In this document: positions 3,757-36,402 of the stretch, piece after piece
How positions within the stretch are numbered: the first letter of the stretch is position 1
Layout of the letters: each line of letters opens with the position of its first letter
Origin: Anaerolineales bacterium UBA4826
GTDB taxonomy: Bacteria; Chloroflexota; Anaerolineae; UBA4142
Direction of reading: 5' to 3'
Assembly (NCBI GenBank): GCA_002400365.1
Contig: DHFK01000084.1
Coordinates: 3,678 to 44,873, forward strand
Length of the DNA stretch: 41,196 nt
Made by a program: the position numbers and the translations under genes
The notes under the pieces: model-generated
What the model was told of the DNA's origin: nothing
The model's database searches: none
What the model saw: the letters and a program-made list of their open reading frames with translations, nothing else

Positions 3757-4806
3757 ATGACTCTCGATTCCAGTGGGACCAGCGGACCTCATTCCGAACG
3801 TGAATCGCGGCGAGGGCTAGGCGGTTGGACGATTTTGCTCGTCCTGCTGCTCCTAGCCCTCGTCGTTTTTCTCGCGCTTCCTCTCGACGGACTCGGCGTT
3901 GCGTCCTGGGCGCTGACGTTCCAGGCGCAACTGCGCGCCGCGCTCTACGCGGCGGGACCGTTCAGCGTCGTCGCGCTGCTCGGCGCGGTCGTCGGACTGG
4001 CGGAGATCGCGGCGACTTTTCCGAACTATCCGCGCGAAGCGCTCGGCGCGCGCTGGGCGCAAACGCTCATCCTCGTCAACGCGCTCGCCGCCATCTTTGC
4101 GTTTTGGGTCGCGCGCACGTACGCGCCGTCGGCGGACCTGATCCTCACCGTCGTCGGGGTTGGCATCGGCTTCCAGGCGATCATTCGCACGCGGTTCACC
4201 ATCGCCAAGCAGATCGGCGGCGCGGGCAGCAGCGACATCAATTTGAATATGGGCTGGCTGTACGATCAGTTCCAGAACTTGTGCAAGACGCAGATTGATA
4301 TGGAGTTGATGCGCGGACGGCGCACGGCGGTGACGCGCCTGCTCGAACGGTTTCCGACGCTGGCGCAGTTGTACGACATCGCGCAGTACACCATCGTCGC
4401 GCGCGCGACGCTGACGACCGAAGAGGAAAAGGCGCGCCTGCAAGAGTTGGACACGTTGTTCAACCCCAAAGCGCCGGCGAGTTTCGCGCGCACGAGCATG
4501 GCGCTGATGATTTTGGAAAACGGCGGCCAGGCGTACGTAGATCTGCTGCTCAACCAACCAGAGGCAGGTGTTGCCAAGCCGACGACATCAGAAGTCGTCG
4601 TCAAGCGGTTGGTCGAAAAATACACGCTCGAGCAGTTGGTCGCGTTGGCGCTGCGGCTGTTGACCGCGCCGAGCGAGCAGACCTGGGTGCAGGAAGCCGC
4701 CAAGCCCGCCGCCGGCGTCAGCGAGGCGAGCCAGAAAGCGACGATCGCGCATTTCCTCGTGCAGCGCGTCGGCGCGGAGACGGTGTTGCGCGAAATCGGC
4801 GCGTAG
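3757..4806 (+). CDS. Hypothetical membrane protein: about 4 N-terminal TM helices plus a helical soluble C-terminal domain
   Basis: 349 aa ORF starting 4 nt after the previous stop, with an AGAGGTGA SD. Hydrophobic segments span about residues 20-150. I recognise no family. Confidence 0.6.
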   Translation: MTLDSSGTSGPHSERESRRGLGGWTILLVLLLLALVVFLALPLDGLGVASWALTFQAQLRAALYAAGPFSVVALLGAVVGLAEIAATFPNYPREALGARWAQTLILVNALAAIFAFWVARTYAPSADLILTVVGVGIGFQAIIRTRFTIAKQIGGAGSSDINLNMGWLYDQFQNLCKTQIDMELMRGRRTAVTRLLERFPTLAQLYDIAQYTIVARATLTTEEEKARLQELDTLFNPKAPASFARTSMALMILENGGQAYVDLLLNQPEAGVAKPTTSEVVVKRLVEKYTLEQLVALALRLLTAPSEQTWVQEAAKPAAGVSEASQKATIAHFLVQRVGAETVLREIGA

Positions 4807-5227: not shown

Positions 5228-6214
5228 TCACCGTGTCACCAACTGGAATGTCAGATAGTAGCGCGTGTGCGCGTTCTGGATTTTCATGCGCACGCTGTAC
5301 AACCCCAAGCCGCTGATCTTGTCGCTAGGATACGCGCCGCCAACCTGGATGGGCCAATGGTTCGCGATGAACGAGTAGTTGCAGTTGCACATGTCGCTCG
5401 CGGGTTTTTCGGGACCCAGATCGCCCACCGTCGCGAGGGTGCCGTCGTCTTTGGTTACTTTGAGCGGCGCGCTCTCACGCCAGCCGCCCGCGCCGATTAG
5501 CATTACGTAGATGTTGGTGCCGGTGTCGCCGCCGGGCAGATTGGGACAATCATTACGCGTGTCGCGGTCGTCGCAATAGAGCGCGCGCGCGAGATGCCAG
5601 TACTTTTGCCCCGCCGCGACGCTCACCGGTTCGAATTTTGCGCCAGGGGGCCATTCGGCGGGGAAGGGCGGGATCCAATTCGTCGGCGCGATCGGCGCGG
5701 GCTTGGTCGCCGTCGCGCGCGGGCGCGTGGGCGTACGCGTGGGCGTTGCCGGGGGCGTGGTCGTTTCAGTCGCCGTGGGTGTGAGCGTCGGCGCGGTCGT
5801 TCGGGTCGGCGGCGGCGTCAGCGTGGCGGTGGGCGTTGGGGTCGTCGCGATGAACGCGATCGCTTGATCGGGATTCCCCAGCGCGACAGCGAGCGCAGCC
5901 AGATTCGCGGCGCTCGGATCGTTCTGGGTGTTGTACTGCTTTGCCAGCGCGGCAACGCGGTCGTTCACCGCGGGATCCTTTAGTTGCGTCAGGCGTTCGC
6001 GGGCGCGGGGCAGGTTGTGATCCAGGGCGTACGCGTTTGCCACGAGCACCACCAGTTCTTCTTGCGCCGCGGGCTTCAAGTCGGTCGCGTCAACATTGGC
6101 GATTTGCACGGGCCATAGACTCCAGCCCACCCATAGTCCAGTGGCAAGCCCGCAGACCAAGCCCAACGCGATGACCACGATCAGCGCGCGCGCGCCGAGT
6201 TTCAGTTCAGTCAT
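5228..6214 (-). CDS. Membrane-anchored protein: N-terminal TM, helical segment, Pro/Thr-rich linker, Cys-containing C-terminal domain shared with the upstream gene
   Basis: 328 aa. TM helix ALIVVIALGLVCGLATGLWVGW, linker TTPTPTATLTPPPTRTTAPTLTPTATETTTPPATPTRTPTRP, and C-terminal motifs GQKYWHLARALY and PSDKISGLGL. Confidence 0.65.
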   Translation of the reverse strand: MTELKLGARALIVVIALGLVCGLATGLWVGWSLWPVQIANVDATDLKPAAQEELVVLVANAYALDHNLPRARERLTQLKDPAVNDRVAALAKQYNTQNDPSAANLAALAVALGNPDQAIAFIATTPTPTATLTPPPTRTTAPTLTPTATETTTPPATPTRTPTRPRATATKPAPIAPTNWIPPFPAEWPPGAKFEPVSVAAGQKYWHLARALYCDDRDTRNDCPNLPGGDTGTNIYVMLIGAGGWRESAPLKVTKDDGTLATVGDLGPEKPASDMCNCNYSFIANHWPIQVGGAYPSDKISGLGLYSVRMKIQNAHTRYYLTFQLVTR

Positions 6215-6217
6215 CTG

Positions 6218-8173
6218 CTATTTGTTTCTTTCCACGTCCAGAAAAGTTGCGATGGCGCGCTTCCAGGTCAAGAGAAAACTGACGTGTTGCTTGAGCGGCA
6301 ATCCGATGCCGCGCACGCGGTCGCTGGGCAAGCCGTCAACCCATGCCTGGTATGCCCCCGTCTCGCCGCGCTCGGGCGCAAACGATGCCCACAGGGGTAG
6401 ATTCGCTTCGCCCCGTTCATTCGTCAGCGCGTCGGTCGCGCCATCCGACCAGCCCTGCCACACCTTTTGATATTCGATCGGTTTGTTCTGCTGGTCAACG
6501 ACAGTGTAGTAAACCTGGTGCTCGTCGTTCGATTCGCCGGGACCTTGATAGATCGCGCGGACGAGTTTCCAGTACGCCTGGCCCGGTTCGATCTCGGCTG
6601 GCTCGATGGCTAGCCCCAGTGCGTCGAGACGCCAATCCCATTCCACTTGAGCGGGGATGGCTAGCGGTTCGGACGGAGGCGCGATCGGTTTTTCCGTCGG
6701 CGGCGCCATTTCTTCCGGCGCGGCGATGGTCGGCGTCACGCGCTCGGGCGCTGGCGCGGCGATCGGTGCTTCGACGACCGGTGCTCGCGCCGGCGCGCTG
6801 GGAGTTGGCAGCGGTGTATCGCGCAGCCACGATGGGAAATCGGCTGGCGCGCGCCGCGCTGGCGGCGCGATGAATTCCGGCGCGGCAGGCGCGTGCACGA
6901 TCGGTTCGACTTGTTCCGGCGCGGGCTTGGGGCGGAGCGGGATTGCGGGTTGGATTGGCGGCGTCGGCTGCGCGCCCGGCAAGCGACGCGCGAGATTCTG
7001 CATGGCTTTAACTGTATCAACGACGGGCAGGCGATCGCCCAACGTCACGTGCGGGACGGCGATTGCCGGAATGTCGTCAAAGCCAAAGGGCGCGTCTTGG
7101 AAGGCGCGCTGCCAAAACGCGCTGCGCCACGCGTCCGGTTCGTGCGCGTCCGATGCGATCAAGAGCGTCGGGACGGCGGCGAAATAGTAATCGGGCGCTT
7201 GTCGCTGCATATAGTCGAACAGCGCGACGGTTTGGTCGCGCTGCGCCTCGGGCGTGACGCGCGGGTAACGCACATCCTCGCGCTGGCCCACGTGATAACC
7301 ACCGGCGACGCTGATGATCGGGATCGAGCGTCCCAGGTATCTTATTGCCAGCGCGTCATAGTATTCGAATTCGCGAAAGCACGCGTGGTCTTGCGCGAGC
7401 GCCGGCGTCGAGTTCGCGCCGTTCGCGCGCAGAACGTTGATTTCGTCGAGCGTGTCCGCGCGGCGGTGCGCGGCGTTCCACCACGCCCATTGCGCGAACA
7501 GGCCAAGATCGTATTGCTCTAGCGTGAGCGCCTGCCCGGCGCGATTGATCGGATCGTCCGGAAAATTGAGTGGGCGATTCTGACACTCGTTGCGCAGCGC
7601 GATCCAGCACCCTTCCAGCAAAATGTCTTGGCGACCGAGCGCGAGCAGCGCGCTCATCAAATCCATGTTGCCGCCGCCGCTGATGGCGGGCAAGCCGGGC
7701 AAGCCGCCGGCGGACAGGATCAAGCGCGCGTCGAAGAGCCAGTTGAGCGCGACGATTTTCGCGGCTTCCAGCGGATGGCTGGGCATCGCGTTGTGTTTCC
7801 ATTCCGTCGCGAGATTCGGCTCGTTGTTCGTCTCAAAATATCGAACGCCCGCGGTAATCAGGCGTTCGATTGTTTTCTCTTCGGGTCCGCCGATGTGACC
7901 GGGATTTGGCTCGGGGGTGTCGTTGGGCGGCGGATCTCGACGGAGAATGCGGACAATCGGAAAAATGCCGGCGGCGAGCAGTTTCTCGCACCAGGGCAGA
8001 CTGCTGCCGCGATCGTCAAGTACCTTGAACCACTTGACACCCATCTCGACGAGTTCGTTGATCCAGTAGGCGTAACCTTCATTGCCGCCGGTCCAGGCGG
8101 CATCCAGACTGCCGTGAAGACCACGCCCGTTGTCGCTCGGCGGGCGCGGGAAATCTTTCAGGTCTTTCGGCAT
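6218..8173 (-). CDS. Putative glycoside-hydrolase-like (TIM-barrel, NEP motif) protein with a Pro-rich linker and a C-terminal domain paralogous to that of 5228-6214
   Basis: 651 aa with a GGAGGAAG SD. RYFETNNEPNL resembles the clan GH-A acid/base motif. Pro/Ala-rich linker at about aa 410-520. C-terminal motifs GQAYWKLVRAIY and PSDRVRGIGL. No obvious signal peptide. Confidence 0.6.
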   Translation of the reverse strand: MPKDLKDFPRPPSDNGRGLHGSLDAAWTGGNEGYAYWINELVEMGVKWFKVLDDRGSSLPWCEKLLAAGIFPIVRILRRDPPPNDTPEPNPGHIGGPEEKTIERLITAGVRYFETNNEPNLATEWKHNAMPSHPLEAAKIVALNWLFDARLILSAGGLPGLPAISGGGNMDLMSALLALGRQDILLEGCWIALRNECQNRPLNFPDDPINRAGQALTLEQYDLGLFAQWAWWNAAHRRADTLDEINVLRANGANSTPALAQDHACFREFEYYDALAIRYLGRSIPIISVAGGYHVGQREDVRYPRVTPEAQRDQTVALFDYMQRQAPDYYFAAVPTLLIASDAHEPDAWRSAFWQRAFQDAPFGFDDIPAIAVPHVTLGDRLPVVDTVKAMQNLARRLPGAQPTPPIQPAIPLRPKPAPEQVEPIVHAPAAPEFIAPPARRAPADFPSWLRDTPLPTPSAPARAPVVEAPIAAPAPERVTPTIAAPEEMAPPTEKPIAPPSEPLAIPAQVEWDWRLDALGLAIEPAEIEPGQAYWKLVRAIYQGPGESNDEHQVYYTVVDQQNKPIEYQKVWQGWSDGATDALTNERGEANLPLWASFAPERGETGAYQAWVDGLPSDRVRGIGLPLKQHVSFLLTWKRAIATFLDVERNK

Positions 8174-9393: not shown

Positions 9394-9444
9394 ATGACAA
9401 ATGAGCAAATGACAAATGGCTCAAAGACGCTTTGTCATTTGTAC
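9394..9444. repeat. Hairpin repeat (gacaaatg units) overlapping the fabF stop codon
   Basis: atgacaaatgagcaaatgacaaatggc ... gctttgtcatttgtac. Confidence 0.7.
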
Positions 9445-11958: not shown

Positions 11959-12411
11959 ATGCAGGTCTTGTTGTTGAAGGACGTGCCCGGCGTCGGCAGC
12001 GCGGGGCAGGTGAAAAAGGTGGCGGATGGTTACGCGCGGAACCGCCTCTTGCCGCAGAAGTTGGCGGTCGTCGCAAGTGAAGGCGCGGTCAAGCAAGCCG
12101 AGGCGATCAAACAAGCCGCCGCGCGCCGCGAAGCCAAGACGCTTGGCGAAGCCCAGGAATTAGCCAAATTGCTGGCGGCGACCACGCTGACCTTTCGCGC
12201 CAAAGCCGGCGAGGGCGACCGACTGTTCGGCTCGATTACCTCGAGCGATATTGCCGAAAGACTTGCCGACGAGCGGCGCATCATGATAGATAAACGCAAA
12301 ATCGAGTTGCCGGCTCCGATCAAGGAATTGGGCGCGCGCCAGGTCTCGGTCAAACTGCATCCCGAAGTGACTGCACAAATGACGGTCGTGATCGAACGGG
12401 AACCGGCTTGA
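11959..12411 (+). CDS. rplI: 50S ribosomal protein L9
   Basis: 150 aa. MQVLLLKDVPGVGSAGQVKKVADGYARNRLLPQKLA is a canonical L9 N-terminus. It stops at the TGA at 12409-12411. Confidence 0.92.
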   Translation: MQVLLLKDVPGVGSAGQVKKVADGYARNRLLPQKLAVVASEGAVKQAEAIKQAAARREAKTLGEAQELAKLLAATTLTFRAKAGEGDRLFGSITSSDIAERLADERRIMIDKRKIELPAPIKELGARQVSVKLHPEVTAQMTVVIEREPA

Positions 12412-12946: not shown

Positions 12947-13282
12947 ATGAGCGCAAACGGCCCTTTGCACGTTACCGACGCGGACTTCCAGAAAACGGTC
13001 TTGGACGCCAAGACGCCGGTGCTGGTTGATTTCTGGGCGACGTGGTGCGGTCCCTGTCGGATGATCGCGCCCTTCGTCGAAGAGATCGCGCGCGATTACG
13101 CCGGGAAGGCGGTCGTCGCGAAAATAGACACGGACGCGAACCCGCAGACGCCGATGAAGTACGGCATCCTGGGTATTCCAACTTTGATTATTTTCAAGAA
13201 TGGCCGAGAGGTGGATCGCATCGTCGGCGCAGCGCCCAAGGCGGCAATCACCAAGAAACTTGACGCGGTGTTAGCGAGGTAG
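12947..13282 (+). CDS. trxA: Thioredoxin
   Basis: 111 aa. VLVDFWATWCGPCRMIAP...GIPTLIIFKNG. A GAGGAGG SD lies upstream. Confidence 0.93.
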   Translation: MSANGPLHVTDADFQKTVLDAKTPVLVDFWATWCGPCRMIAPFVEEIARDYAGKAVVAKIDTDANPQTPMKYGILGIPTLIIFKNGREVDRIVGAAPKAAITKKLDAVLAR

Positions 13283-13491: not shown

Positions 13492-13545
13492 GCGCTGCCG
13501 CAGCGGTAGCCCGTTGGGTTACCTCAGAGAGCAGAGGTGGTTGGA

Positions 13546-13812
13546 ATGGCTCGGGAGTTCAAAACCGAGATGGTCAAGCGTTTGAAACGGATCGAAGGGC
13601 AAACGCGCGGCGTGCAAAAGATGGTGGAGGAAGACCGCAGTTGCGCGGAAATCCTGCATCAACTGACCGCGATCAACGAGGCGGTGCACAGCGTGAGTCG
13701 AATGCTGGCCGAGCAGTACGCCGTCGAGTGTATGCAGACGACGAGCACGCGCGGGAAATCGCGCGCGGCGATCGCGACGATGATTGACGTGCTGTCGCGG
13801 GTACCGCGGTAA
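13546..13812 (+). CDS. CsoR/RcnR/FrmR-family metal- or thiol-sensing transcriptional repressor (two-Cys type)
   Basis: The track ORF starts at the GTG at 13537. The ATG at 13546 lies 8 nt after the AGAGG SD. RLKRIEGQTRGVQKMVEEDRSCAEILHQLTAI is the family core, and the C-terminal part contains EQYAVEC. Confidence 0.85.
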   Translation: MAREFKTEMVKRLKRIEGQTRGVQKMVEEDRSCAEILHQLTAINEAVHSVSRMLAEQYAVECMQTTSTRGKSRAAIATMIDVLSRVPR

Positions 13813-13814
13813 GA

Positions 13815-13895
13815 GCGAATGGCAAATAGCAAATGGCGAATGGCTTATGGCTGATTGCAGTCTGCTATACGCCATATGCTATACGCTATTCGCCA
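13815..13895. repeat. Hairpin repeat of about 7-nt units (aatggc/aatagc ... gctatac/gctattc)
   Basis: gcgaatggcaaatagcaaatggcgaatggc ... gctatacgccatatgctatacgctattcgcc. It produces the spurious MANGLWLIAVCYTPYAIRYSP N-terminus of track ORF 13833. Confidence 0.8.
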
Positions 13896-13907
13896 AGAGG
13901 GGGTTGT

Positions 13908-14618
13908 GTGGCTTTGTTACGCGACGCTGACCGTGAGAACTTGCGCCAGGAATTGAGCAAGTTGCAAAACCCAGTCAAGTTGCTGTTTTTCTCACAGGCG
14001 TTGAATTGCGATTATTGTCCGTTGACCAAGCAAGTGCTCGAAGAGTTAGTTAGTCTGTCGGACAAGATTCAATTACAGGAATACAATTGCGCGATTGATC
14101 GCGACGCGGTCGCGCAGTACAAGATCGCGCGGGTGCCGGCAATCGCGCTGGTGCGCGTCGAGCCGCCGAAACTCTTGGTGACCGGCAACGAGCCGTCGCG
14201 CGAACGCGATTACGGCATTCGCTACTATGGCGTGCCGGCGGGCTTTGAATTCGCCGCGCTCGTCGGCGACATCATGGACGTTTCGCTCGGCGAGTCCGGC
14301 TTGAGCGACCAGAGCAAAGCCGCGCTCAGGCAACTGAAAGAACCGCTGCACTTGCAGGTCTTTGCGACCCCGACTTGACCGCATTGCCCGCGTGCGGTCA
14401 GGTTGACCCACAAAATGGCGATGGAAAGTGAATTGATTACGGCGGACATGGTCGAGGCGTCCGAGTACCCTGAACTCTCCGAGTTGTATCAGGTGTACGG
14501 CGTGCCGCTGACCGTCGCCAACGAAAAAGTGCGCGTGGAAGGCGGGATGCCAGAGCAGGTATTCATTTCGCAGATTCTGCAAGGCATCGGCGTGAGCCCC
14601 ATGGTGTCGGAGAACTAA
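13908..14618 (+). CDS. Two-domain protein disulfide oxidoreductase (PDO/glutaredoxin-like) with an in-frame TGA at 14376-14378; candidate Sec-containing UPHC active site
   Basis: Track ORFs 13833-14378 and 14403-14618 are in the same frame with no other stop between them. The joined translation ...LHLQVFATPT-[TGA]-PHCPRAVRLTHKMAMESELITADMVEASEYPELSELYQVYGVP... matches the second Trx-fold unit of archaeal/Thermotoga PDO (VFVTPTCPYCPLAVRMAHKFA...MVEAIEYPEW). The first unit carries CDYC. The GTG at 13908 follows an AAGAGGGGG SD and matches where the homologue N-terminus begins (LISDADKK ~ LLRDADRE). Confidence 0.65.
14376..14420 (+). promoter_or_regulatory. Candidate bacterial SECIS region downstream of the in-frame UGA
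   Basis: Two mutually exclusive hairpins read by eye. (A) UGACCGCA/UGCGGUCA, 8 bp, 14376-14400. (B) 14392-14411, GUG-(bulged C)-GGUCA / loop GGU / UGACC-CAC, starting 13 nt after the UGA. Confidence 0.45.
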
Positions 14619-14624
14619 TCGTCC

Positions 14625-15053
14625 ATGCGCGTGCTCATTTGGCACGTAGATTCTTTCGTCTGCCGGATCACCGAGAAAGGTCGTTCGCCCGTCGTCGAAC
14701 CGATGGGCGAACGCGCGACGCGCGTTGGCGAAGCGTTGCTGGTGCTGGCGAGCGTCGAAAAATCGGACGAGCGCGCGCCCCAAATCGTCGCGCAGCGCGC
14801 GGCGGCAATGCTGGCGGAACACGCGCGCAAACTTGGAGTGAACGCGCTCGTGCTACATTCGTTCGCGCATTTGTTCGCGGAACTTGCGGCGCCGGCGATT
14901 GCGGTGGAGGCGCTGAAGGAAACCGAACGGTTGCTGCGCGCGGAGGGTTTTTCGGTTTCCCGTCCGCCGTTTGGCTGGTTCAACGAACTGGAAATCAAAG
15001 CGAAAGGACACCCCCTCTCGCGGTTGGCGCGGACGATTTCGGCTGAGGTGTGA
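14625..15053 (+). CDS. Free-standing archaeal-type threonyl-tRNA synthetase editing domain (tRNA-Thr_ED / DTD2-like fold)
   Basis: 142 aa. MRVLIWHVDSF...ALLVLASVEKSDE...LHSFAHLFAELAAP...PPFGWFNELEIKAKGHPLSRLARTI closely parallels the Pyrococcus ThrRS N-terminal editing domain as I remember it (MRMLLIHSDY...ISVEK...YPFAHLSSELAKP...[25 protein letters not shown]). It starts 6 nt after the PDO stop. Confidence 0.78.
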   Translation: MRVLIWHVDSFVCRITEKGRSPVVEPMGERATRVGEALLVLASVEKSDERAPQIVAQRAAAMLAEHARKLGVNALVLHSFAHLFAELAAPAIAVEALKETERLLRAEGFSVSRPPFGWFNELEIKAKGHPLSRLARTISAEV

Positions 15054-15054
15054 G

Positions 15055-15453
15055 ATGGATCCGATCGAAAAGATTTACAAGGAATACAAGACGATTGCGG
15101 TGGTTGGCGCGTCGAACAATCCGGCGCGACCGAGTTATGAGGTCGCCAAGTATTTGCAGGATCATGGGTTCAAGATCATTCCGGTCAACCCAACGCTTGC
15201 CGAACTCTTCGGCGAAAAGTGTTACCCCGACGTGCGCTCGATTCCGGGATCGGTGGATGTCGTTGATATTTTCCGCAATCCAGATGCGGTGCCGGAGATC
15301 GTCGAGCAGGCGATTGCGAAAAAGGCAAAGGTGGTATGGCTGCAGCCGGGCGCGGAGAATCCTCAAGCCGCCGAGCGCGCGACGCAAGCCGGGCTGGAAG
15401 TGATTATGGGCGTGTGCATGATGAAAGAGCATCGCGGGTTGCAGTCGGGATAA
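15055..15453 (+). CDS. CoA-binding domain protein (YccU/YneT-like)
   Basis: The internal ATG at 15055 lies 1 nt after the upstream TGA. MDPIEKIYKEYKTIAVVGASNNPARPSYEVAKYLQDHGFKIIPVNP is typical of the CoA_binding_2 family. Confidence 0.88.
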   Translation: MDPIEKIYKEYKTIAVVGASNNPARPSYEVAKYLQDHGFKIIPVNPTLAELFGEKCYPDVRSIPGSVDVVDIFRNPDAVPEIVEQAIAKKAKVVWLQPGAENPQAAERATQAGLEVIMGVCMMKEHRGLQSG

Positions 15454-15545: not shown

Positions 15546-16010
15546 ATGGCAGAAGTGAAAACTGCATCGGTGAAATGGGTTGAGGGGTTGGAGTTCCAGA
15601 CCTTTACGGGGTCGGGGCATCAGGGCGTGATCGACGCGGGCGACAAGTCAGGCGGCAAGAATCATGGTCCCAGCCCGATGGAACTTGTGCTGGTCGGTCT
15701 CGCGGGATGCACGGCCATGGATGTGATTGACATCCTGCGGAAAAAACGCTTGGCGGTGAGCGGCTTGGAGGTGAAGGTCGAAGGGACGCGCGCGGAAACG
15801 CATCCGATGTATTACACGAATCTTGACGTGGTCTACGTCGTGCGCGGCAAAGACATTCCGCCGAGTGCGGTCAAGCAGGCGATTCATTTGTCGGAAGAAA
15901 GGTATTGCAGCGTTGGCGTGATGCTCGGCAAATCGGCGCGGATCAACAGCCGCTACGAGATCATCGCGGAGCAAAATGGTTGGGATAAATTATCGTGTGC
16001 CGGTGATTGA
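15546..16010 (+). CDS. OsmC-family peroxiredoxin-like protein
   Basis: 154 aa. GPSPMELVLVGLAGCTAMDVIDIL and SEERYCSVGVML carry the two conserved OsmC cysteines. Confidence 0.88.
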   Translation: MAEVKTASVKWVEGLEFQTFTGSGHQGVIDAGDKSGGKNHGPSPMELVLVGLAGCTAMDVIDILRKKRLAVSGLEVKVEGTRAETHPMYYTNLDVVYVVRGKDIPPSAVKQAIHLSEERYCSVGVMLGKSARINSRYEIIAEQNGWDKLSCAGD

Positions 16011-36294: not shown

Positions 36295-36402
36295 GATAGC
36301 GTATGGCGTATGGCTGATGGCATATGGCTAACGGCTTGTTGCTCCATCTTTCCTATTTGCCTTCTACTATTCGCTATTCGCCATTTGCTATATGCCATAC
36401 GC
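36295..36402. repeat. Hairpin repeat of tatggc/gctattc 7-nt units; same subfamily as 13815-13895
   Basis: gatagcgtatggcgtatggctgatggcatatggctaacggc ... ctattcgctattcgccatttgctatatgccatacgc. Confidence 0.8.

Follow-up and report, generated by a model that had tools for sequence, protein, structure and literature searches.

On contig DHFK01000084.1 of Anaerolineales bacterium UBA4826 (GenBank assembly GCA_002400365.1), two open reading frames (ORFs) at positions 13833-14378 and 14403-14618 share a single frame, and the TGA at 14376-14378 is the sole interruption between them. Positions here are those of the 41,196-nucleotide stretch of forward-strand DNA that was analysed, hereafter the window. 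The question raised by this locus is whether it comprises two genes, the remains of one, or one functional gene in which UGA is translated. Our analyses indicate that it very probably encodes a single protein disulfide oxidoreductase (PDO) with selenocysteine (Sec) inserted at the UGA of codon 157. An earlier note, made from the sequence letters alone, had pointed to two ORFs in one frame divided by nothing other than the TGA and had given a translation across it; our frame check and our own read-through translation reproduce both. The checks it suggested that we carried out, on the codon in orthologues, on decay of the downstream frame and on the downstream hairpin, all favour its interpretation.

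The joined frame runs from 13908 to 14618 on the forward strand and contains 236 codons followed by a TAA stop, with the TGA as codon 157. Its read-through translation, ...LHLQVFATPT-[UGA]-PHCPRAVRLTHKMAMES...EYPELSELYQVYGVP, together with a family model and a match to a solved structure described below, identifies 13908-14618 as the full gene of the probable PDO selenoprotein, a protein disulfide oxidoreductase and homologue of the AhpF N-terminal domain. The start was placed at GTG 13908 (MALLRD...), with AGAGGGGG just before it, on the basis of relatives that begin M[AP]LLR. The upstream ATG at 13833 was considered as the start and ruled out, given that the M[AP]LLR beginnings of the relatives point to GTG 13908. 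Public gene callers, as the earlier note had expected of standard pipelines, split the locus. They recognise a 156-residue fragment at 13908-14378 (+; entry P0005) and a 67-residue ‘Thioredoxin_3’ fragment without a CxxC motif at 14415-14618 (+), the equivalent of which is called at 5888-6091 in the same-species assembly L002; dozens of orthologues likewise appear in public collections as 156-residue pieces and 62-71-residue ‘Thioredoxin_3’ pieces or hypothetical proteins.

With Cys replacing the stop, the read-through protein scores 255.5 bits against the NCBIfam model TIGR02187.2 (‘PDO_seleno_TRX, protein disulfide oxidoreductase’), well above the curated cut-off of 185 bits and spanning model positions 2-208 of 209. 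Residues 2-226 align end to end in HMMER with the Pyrococcus furiosus PDO (PDBID 1a8l; E=2.9e-46), the P. horikoshii enzyme (PDBID 1j08) aligns likewise, and in both alignments the first Cys of CPYC is matched by the TGA. Pfam recognises Thioredoxin at residues 9-86 and Thioredoxin_3 at residues 148-225, which, along with the alignments to the solved structures, points to two tandem thioredoxin-fold units. The N-terminal unit retains an ordinary Cys pair, C34-D-Y-C37 (14007-14018, +), aligned with the CQYC of P. furiosus PDO. The putative active site of the C-terminal unit is U157-P-H-C160 (14376-14387, +), with TGA 14376-14378 as the proposed Sec codon. The earlier assignment of UGA to the first Cys of the second CxxC thus agrees with the 1a8l alignment (TPTCPYCP), and the CDYC motif that had been described as intact in the first domain is indeed so.

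If UGA is translated at this position, relatives of the protein should be informative at the same codon. Relatives were sought in a search of 5.8 billion proteins, after which DNA was taken for 80 genome and 80 metagenome loci. Full-length close relatives are few (P0001-P0004, 69-79% identity) and carry TPTCPHCP or TPSCPHCP. Dozens of others are entries of 156-175 residues, with 70-81% identity and 65-66% query coverage, and all eleven short relatives retrieved finish in ...LHLQVFxTPT. Among the 161 loci with the motif, the codon at the TGA position is TGA in 55, TGC in 58 and TGT in 48, a clean Sec/Cys pattern among orthologues. The 13 closest species-level genomes are without exception metagenome-assembled genomes (MAGs) from Chloroflexota/Anaerolineae, and 12 of them have TGA, the thirteenth (L009) having TGT. 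TGA forms recur in a second Anaerolineales clade (L023, L031 and L046, with TGT in the sister L040), in Zixibacteria (L032 and L078) and in Acidobacteriota/Terriglobia (L052, L075, L076 and L083).

Several members of these groups deserve separate mention. Four Cys-form sequences with TGT for TGA (L009, L090, L091 and L103; 75-77% identity) sit within the Sec clade. In the Sec-form PDO of L075, a Terriglobia MAG, the N-terminal CxxC is replaced by LEYG, leaving the C-terminal UxxC as the only redox centre; L052, L076, L083, L147 and L151 belong to the same Acidobacteriota Sec-form clade.

The DNA downstream of the TGA behaves as coding sequence. Every TGA locus has an open frame of 71-83 codons past the TGA, with no frameshift and no extra stop, and the frame decay anticipated for a true pseudogene is absent from all of them. 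By the Nei-Gojobori method with the window sequence as reference, dN/dS is 0.05-0.24 downstream of the TGA (66 codons; dS 0.5 to >2, near saturation) and 0.06-0.29 upstream of it (60 codons), such that purifying selection is equal on both sides. Codons +1 to +4 after the TGA, encoding P-H-C-P, are constant at the amino acid level across 27 distinct sequences despite variation at their third positions, and these codons come before any possible restart codon. Because the frame is kept, selection is purifying and P-H-C-P is constant, we exclude that the locus is a pseudogene, that the TGA is a sequencing error and that the two pieces are translated apart.

A nonsense mutation or miscalled base at the Cys codon would be a simple event, since a single base separates TGC or TGT from TGA, and TGA is a true stop elsewhere in the window. 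However, an identical stretch of 60 nucleotides including the TGA occurs in three other independent assemblies of the organism, namely GCA_002412505.1 (contig DHVF01000377.1) and Logan SRR1564103 and SRR1573578, which excludes a base-calling error. Moreover, the 55 TGA loci span synonymous saturation, with a downstream dN/dS near 0.1 and neither frameshifts nor extra stops. These downstream frames and substitution rates effectively refute decay or error, to which we assign a negligible probability. The alternative that the gene is truly split, with a 156-residue N-terminal piece and a 67-71-residue C-terminal piece translated apart and perhaps reassembling, draws on the prediction of both pieces by gene callers everywhere and on the presence of TTG 14403 and ATG 14415 as potential starts. 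Against it, the P-H-C-P-x-A-V segment that precedes any restart is kept at the amino acid level as synonymous sites vary, a restart would lose the whole redox motif, and the Cys-form sisters are continuous. We regard a split gene as very improbable.

An in-frame TGA, taken alone, could also signal a genetic code in which UGA is a sense codon genome-wide. In the window, TGA serves as the stop of rplI (12409-12411), of the gene following PDO (15051-15053; a tRNA-Thr-ED-like gene described below) and of fabF on the minus strand; the PDO, thioredoxin and CsoR-like genes stop at TAA or TAG. The match to the fabF family model extends to the model's end (406 of 407 positions) and stops four residues short of the TGA, from which it follows that the fabF protein ends at full family length. 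A reassigned code is refuted by these observations, leaving it scarcely any probability, and the earlier argument that TGA is otherwise a stop in this DNA holds. Scanning the window generically for further pairs of ORFs in one frame with a TGA between them returned about 70 candidates and is uninformative in sequence this rich in GC.

Decoding of UGA as Sec in bacteria calls attention to the RNA immediately 3′ of the codon, where a Sec insertion sequence (SECIS) would be located. The earlier note had described the UGA as embedded in an 8-bp hairpin and had mentioned an alternative hairpin downstream; the downstream hairpin proves conserved and covarying, and the UGA-embedding one is not conserved. 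We refer to the former as hairpin B and to the latter as hairpin A. Both were tested on a gap-free alignment (A1) of the close Sec clade, which comprises 27 distinct sequences.

Hairpin B begins 13 nucleotides past the UGA, and its core, GUG-(C bulge)-GGUCA / loop GGU / UGACC-CAC, occupies 14392-14411 (+), with an apical loop at 14401-14403 closed by A14400-U14404. When folding starts at the UGA (14376-14425), the minimum free energy (MFE) structure, at -18.4 kcal/mol, consists of hairpin B plus a lower stem; the core by itself folds at -9.4 kcal/mol. Published constraints on bacterial SECIS elements (bSECIS) call for an apical loop of 3-9 nucleotides on an upper stem of 4-16 bp, a G within the first two loop positions (N1-G-[G/U]-N-N2), a UGA-to-loop distance of 16-37 nucleotides and an MFE of no more than -7.5 kcal/mol (PMC13188914). 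With a loop of GGU (or AGGUU), a stem of 5+3 bp with a C bulge and a spacing of 22 nucleotides, hairpin B lies within all four of these constraints. The loop follows the pattern A-G-[G/U]-[U/C]-U in the alignment, with its closing A-U and with G26 invariant (27/27).

Pairing in hairpin B is preserved in 94.8% of alignment cells, compared with 23-44% in slid controls, and its covariation score was matched by none of 500 shuffles. Compensatory substitutions, which the check on this hairpin was meant to find, are present. Pair 21-33, which links the third position of an Ala codon with the third position of a Thr/Ala codon, both of them synonymous sites, is A-U in 15 sequences, G-C in 9 and C-G in 2, with one sequence unpaired; at pair 24-30, C-G is found in 25 sequences, U-A in 1 and U-G in 1. 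On a neighbour-joining tree of the rest of the gene, the state of pair 21-33 changes at least 8 times, with C-G gained twice independently by parsimony. The lone mismatch at this pair (L012) refolds through a bulge shift. The possible lower stem, 14382-14388 with 14417-14423, would extend the element to 14382-14423 (+) and is part of the MFE structure of 14376-14425; 93.1% of its cells pair, but all of its substitutions are one-sided and 12 of the 27 sequences disrupt pair 9-46, making it a weak candidate for a part of the SECIS.

Codon choice in the same segment differs between Sec and Cys forms. The Arg codon is AGG or AGT in all 27 close-clade Sec sequences, while Cys forms mostly use CGN, with AGG in 7 of 91; the next Leu codon is TTG in 23 of 45 Sec forms versus 11 of 91 Cys forms, and the Val codon is GTC in 35 of 45 versus 20 of 91, all counts being drawn from sequences that share ancestry and are phylogenetically non-independent. 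In the Cys-form sisters L009 and L090 the pairing is gone, with mismatches G-G, U-U and G-A at pairs 21-33 and 24-30; their Arg codon is CGC or CGA rather than AGG, and the L090 core folds at only -2.3 kcal/mol. Judging from these sequences, L009 and L090 look like recent reversions from Sec to Cys followed by relaxed constraint on the RNA. Other Sec clades have hairpins of their own that start 11-12 nucleotides after the UGA, with loops GGUC, GUC, GGU or GGUCA.

Hairpin A was also evaluated as the SECIS and rejected. The 8 bp originally noted are part of a 14-bp MFE stem of the window at 14371-14405 (+), which contains the UGA within its 5′ arm and cannot form at the same time as the SECIS core. 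Its UGA-to-loop distance is 6 nucleotides, outside 16-37, and it is often broken and lacks covariation: 18 of the 27 sequences disrupt pair 5-21 and 8 disrupt pair 6-20, with no compensatory change. Since pair 5-21 is lost in 18 of 27 sequences without compensation, hairpin A is not the SECIS.

A number of results weigh against Sec decoding and must be set beside this evidence. In the window itself hairpin A (-23.8 kcal/mol, z=-3.0) is more stable than the SECIS fold. Folding energy does not discriminate Sec from Cys forms (means of -10.8 and -9.7 kcal/mol, p=0.08), a similarity explained by the self-complementarity of A-V-R-L-A codons in GC-rich genomes. Searches of Rfam, with the window at gathering thresholds and 14340-14480 at permissive E-values, matched no family and gave only chance-level hits. 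Nor was Sec machinery found in the window or beside the Sec-form genes: NCBIfam or Pfam scans of 30 ORFs and tblastn detect no selA, selB or selD in the 41-kb window, tblastn with E. coli SelA, SelB and SelD finds nothing in the window or in the flanks of those fetched loci that are Sec forms, and ARAGORN predicts no tRNA gene in the window and no tRNA-Sec among the 12 tRNAs in the 1.47 Mb of fetched loci. Finally, the Sec status of the PDO family is itself a prediction, ‘predicted with high confidence’, rather than a biochemical result. Some Chloroflexota MAGs are reported in the literature to use Sec, which makes it plausible that the phylum does so.

The sole tblastn match to the Sec machinery lies elsewhere, in a Calditrichota MAG (L030) whose PDO is a Cys form; this SelD homologue (L030:7506-8516; 37% identity to E. 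coli SelD, E=1e-60) is situated about 1.5 kb upstream of the PDO gene.

The same missing machinery is one of two points in favour of read-through without selenium, in which a near-cognate or suppressor tRNA (e.g. for Trp or Cys) would read the UGA as the hairpin slows termination, producing a full-length protein; the other is the leaky UGA-C context, present in every Sec-form locus. This explanation fares poorly on three counts. The UGA stands exactly at the nucleophilic Cys, where activity needs Cys or Sec; hairpin B carries the specific bSECIS loop pattern, with its invariant G and correct spacing; and PDO already counts as a Sec family in organisms whose Sec machinery is known. We consider selenium-free read-through unlikely, though the least improbable of the rivals weighed here, and retain Sec decoding as the preferred interpretation.

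In archaeal and Thermotoga PDOs, thioredoxin reductase supplies the electrons, which then go to peroxiredoxins and disulfide substrates. For the window gene, we infer that Sec is the residue inserted and that SelB binds hairpin B, and we infer its redox partners by comparison with those enzymes. Briefly, the segment encoding P-H-C-P-R-A-V-R-L-T-H would fold into the SECIS at 14392-14411, with the loop A-G-G-U-U, and this hairpin would recruit the SelB-GTP-Sec-tRNA(Sec) complex as the ribosome arrives at UGA157, where Sec would be inserted. The predicted product would combine an ordinary C-D-Y-C in the N-terminal unit with a redox centre of U-P-H-C in the C-terminal one. By analogy with the PDOs of Pyrococcus, Thermotoga and Sulfolobus, it would most likely be reduced by thioredoxin reductase and might then hand electrons to peroxidases or disulfide substrates. 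No thioredoxin reductase was found among the 30 window ORFs scanned with NCBIfam or Pfam models.

A further idea concerns the RNA. The A-V-R-L-A segment that follows the PDO CxxC (GCG GUC CGC CUG GC), self-complementary in GC-rich genomes, may represent a ready-made proto-SECIS; although we think this somewhat unlikely, it could, if true, explain about nine apparent Cys/Sec switches in Chloroflexota, Zixibacteria and Acidobacteriota, as well as the nearly equal folding of Cys and Sec forms. Under the same reading, in the window lineage, competition between the SECIS and the stabler, UGA-burying hairpin could additionally tune Sec insertion.

The gene neighbourhood is conserved among relatives, in the order thioredoxin, Zn-ribbon protein, CsoR-family repressor, PDO, tRNA-Thr-ED-like protein, CoA-binding protein and OsmC. 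In the window, the thioredoxin gene (WCGPC) lies at 12947-13282 (+), recognised from its translation and from a Pfam Thioredoxin match on the syntenic gene, and a CsoR/RicR-family metal-sensing repressor lies immediately 5′ of PDO at 13537-13812 (+; NF052430, E=8e-17), syntenic in L001-L004. Directly 3′ of PDO, at 14625-15053 (+), is a gene for a tRNA-Thr-ED-like protein of 142 residues (NF003068, E=4e-31), a stand-alone protein resembling the N-terminal editing domain of archaeal-type threonyl-tRNA synthetase and Ser-tRNA(Thr) hydrolase. This gene keeps its place in L002-L004, which are assemblies of the same species, whereas the PDO of L001 is followed by a fusion of the CoA-binding and OsmC genes. 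A CoA-binding gene (about 15055-15453; Pfam CoA_binding_2, E=2e-45) stands between PDO and the gene for an OsmC-family peroxidase-like protein (15546-16010, +; Pfam OsmC, E=7.7e-17), a possible electron acceptor. With thioredoxin, CoA-binding and OsmC genes nearby, a thiol and oxidative-stress role is suggested for the PDO.

Other features of the window are recorded here as observations in their own right. Between the CsoR-like gene and the PDO start, 13815-13893 forms a near-perfect hairpin of about 80 nucleotides built of heptamer repeats, (AATGGCR)x5 on the 5′ arm and complementary GCTATAC/GCCATAT units on the 3′ arm, with an RNA MFE of -42.2 kcal/mol (z=-4.9). It is absent in the relative L001, where the spacer is just 23 nucleotides. 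Similar heptamers occur at 9408 and at 36302-36385 (10 matches versus 2.1 expected), and the hairpin might act as a terminator or regulatory structure or represent a small repeat element. At the thresholds used, neither Pfam nor NCBIfam matches three long ORFs: 6218-8173 (-; 651 residues), 3757-4806 (+; 349 residues) and 5228-6214 (-; 328 residues).

Taken together with what is on record, the window gene is a new member of a known selenoprotein family and, with its relatives, forms a large new Chloroflexota clade, because every testable feature of membership is present and the name of TIGR02187.2 itself contains ‘seleno’. No new kind of system is revealed, but the result is useful for annotation. 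Pipelines blind to Sec miss the active site of what is probably a central thiol-redox protein in widespread uncultured Chloroflexota. The known family gains this large clade along with those of Zixibacteria and Acidobacteriota, which illustrate repeated exchange of Sec and Cys. In addition, the alignment of 27 sequences provides an unusually clean, covariation-supported example of a bacterial SECIS in a coding region, usable for a search model.

The Sec-form PDO family on record has a UxxC motif, is exemplified by ABB15282.1 of Carboxydothermus hydrogenoformans and is found also in Symbiobacterium thermophilum and Asgard archaea; it is this family that one review grades as predicted with high confidence (PMC1794560, PMC9312934, PMC13188914). 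The window protein resembles it in scoring above the cut-off of the same NCBIfam model and in carrying Sec, as proposed, for the first Cys of the C-terminal CxxC. It differs in its host, a Chloroflexota/Anaerolineae clade rather than Firmicutes, Actinobacteria or Asgard archaea, and in its UPHC motif and clade-specific SECIS sequence, the likeness to ABB15282.1 being drawn through the family model and description. With the PDOs of Pyrococcus (1a8l, 1j08) and their Aquifex, Aeropyrum and Thermotoga homologues (2ayt, 2hls) it shares the two-thioredoxin-fold architecture and equivalent positions for both motifs, but the Pyrococcus-type enzymes have CPYC where the window protein has UPHC, and the window protein contains a 14-residue insertion in its N-terminal unit, PPKLLVTGNEPSRE. 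Finally, hairpin B resembles the E. coli fdhF-type SECIS and the bSECIS consensus (Zhang and Gladyshev model) as a coding-region stem-loop just 3′ of the UGA, whose small apical loop has a G and then G/U and whose stem has a one-base bulge, the UGA-to-loop distance here being 22 nucleotides. Unlike the fdhF element, with which it has no sequence similarity, it bulges a C rather than a U, and its binding of SelB is a prediction.

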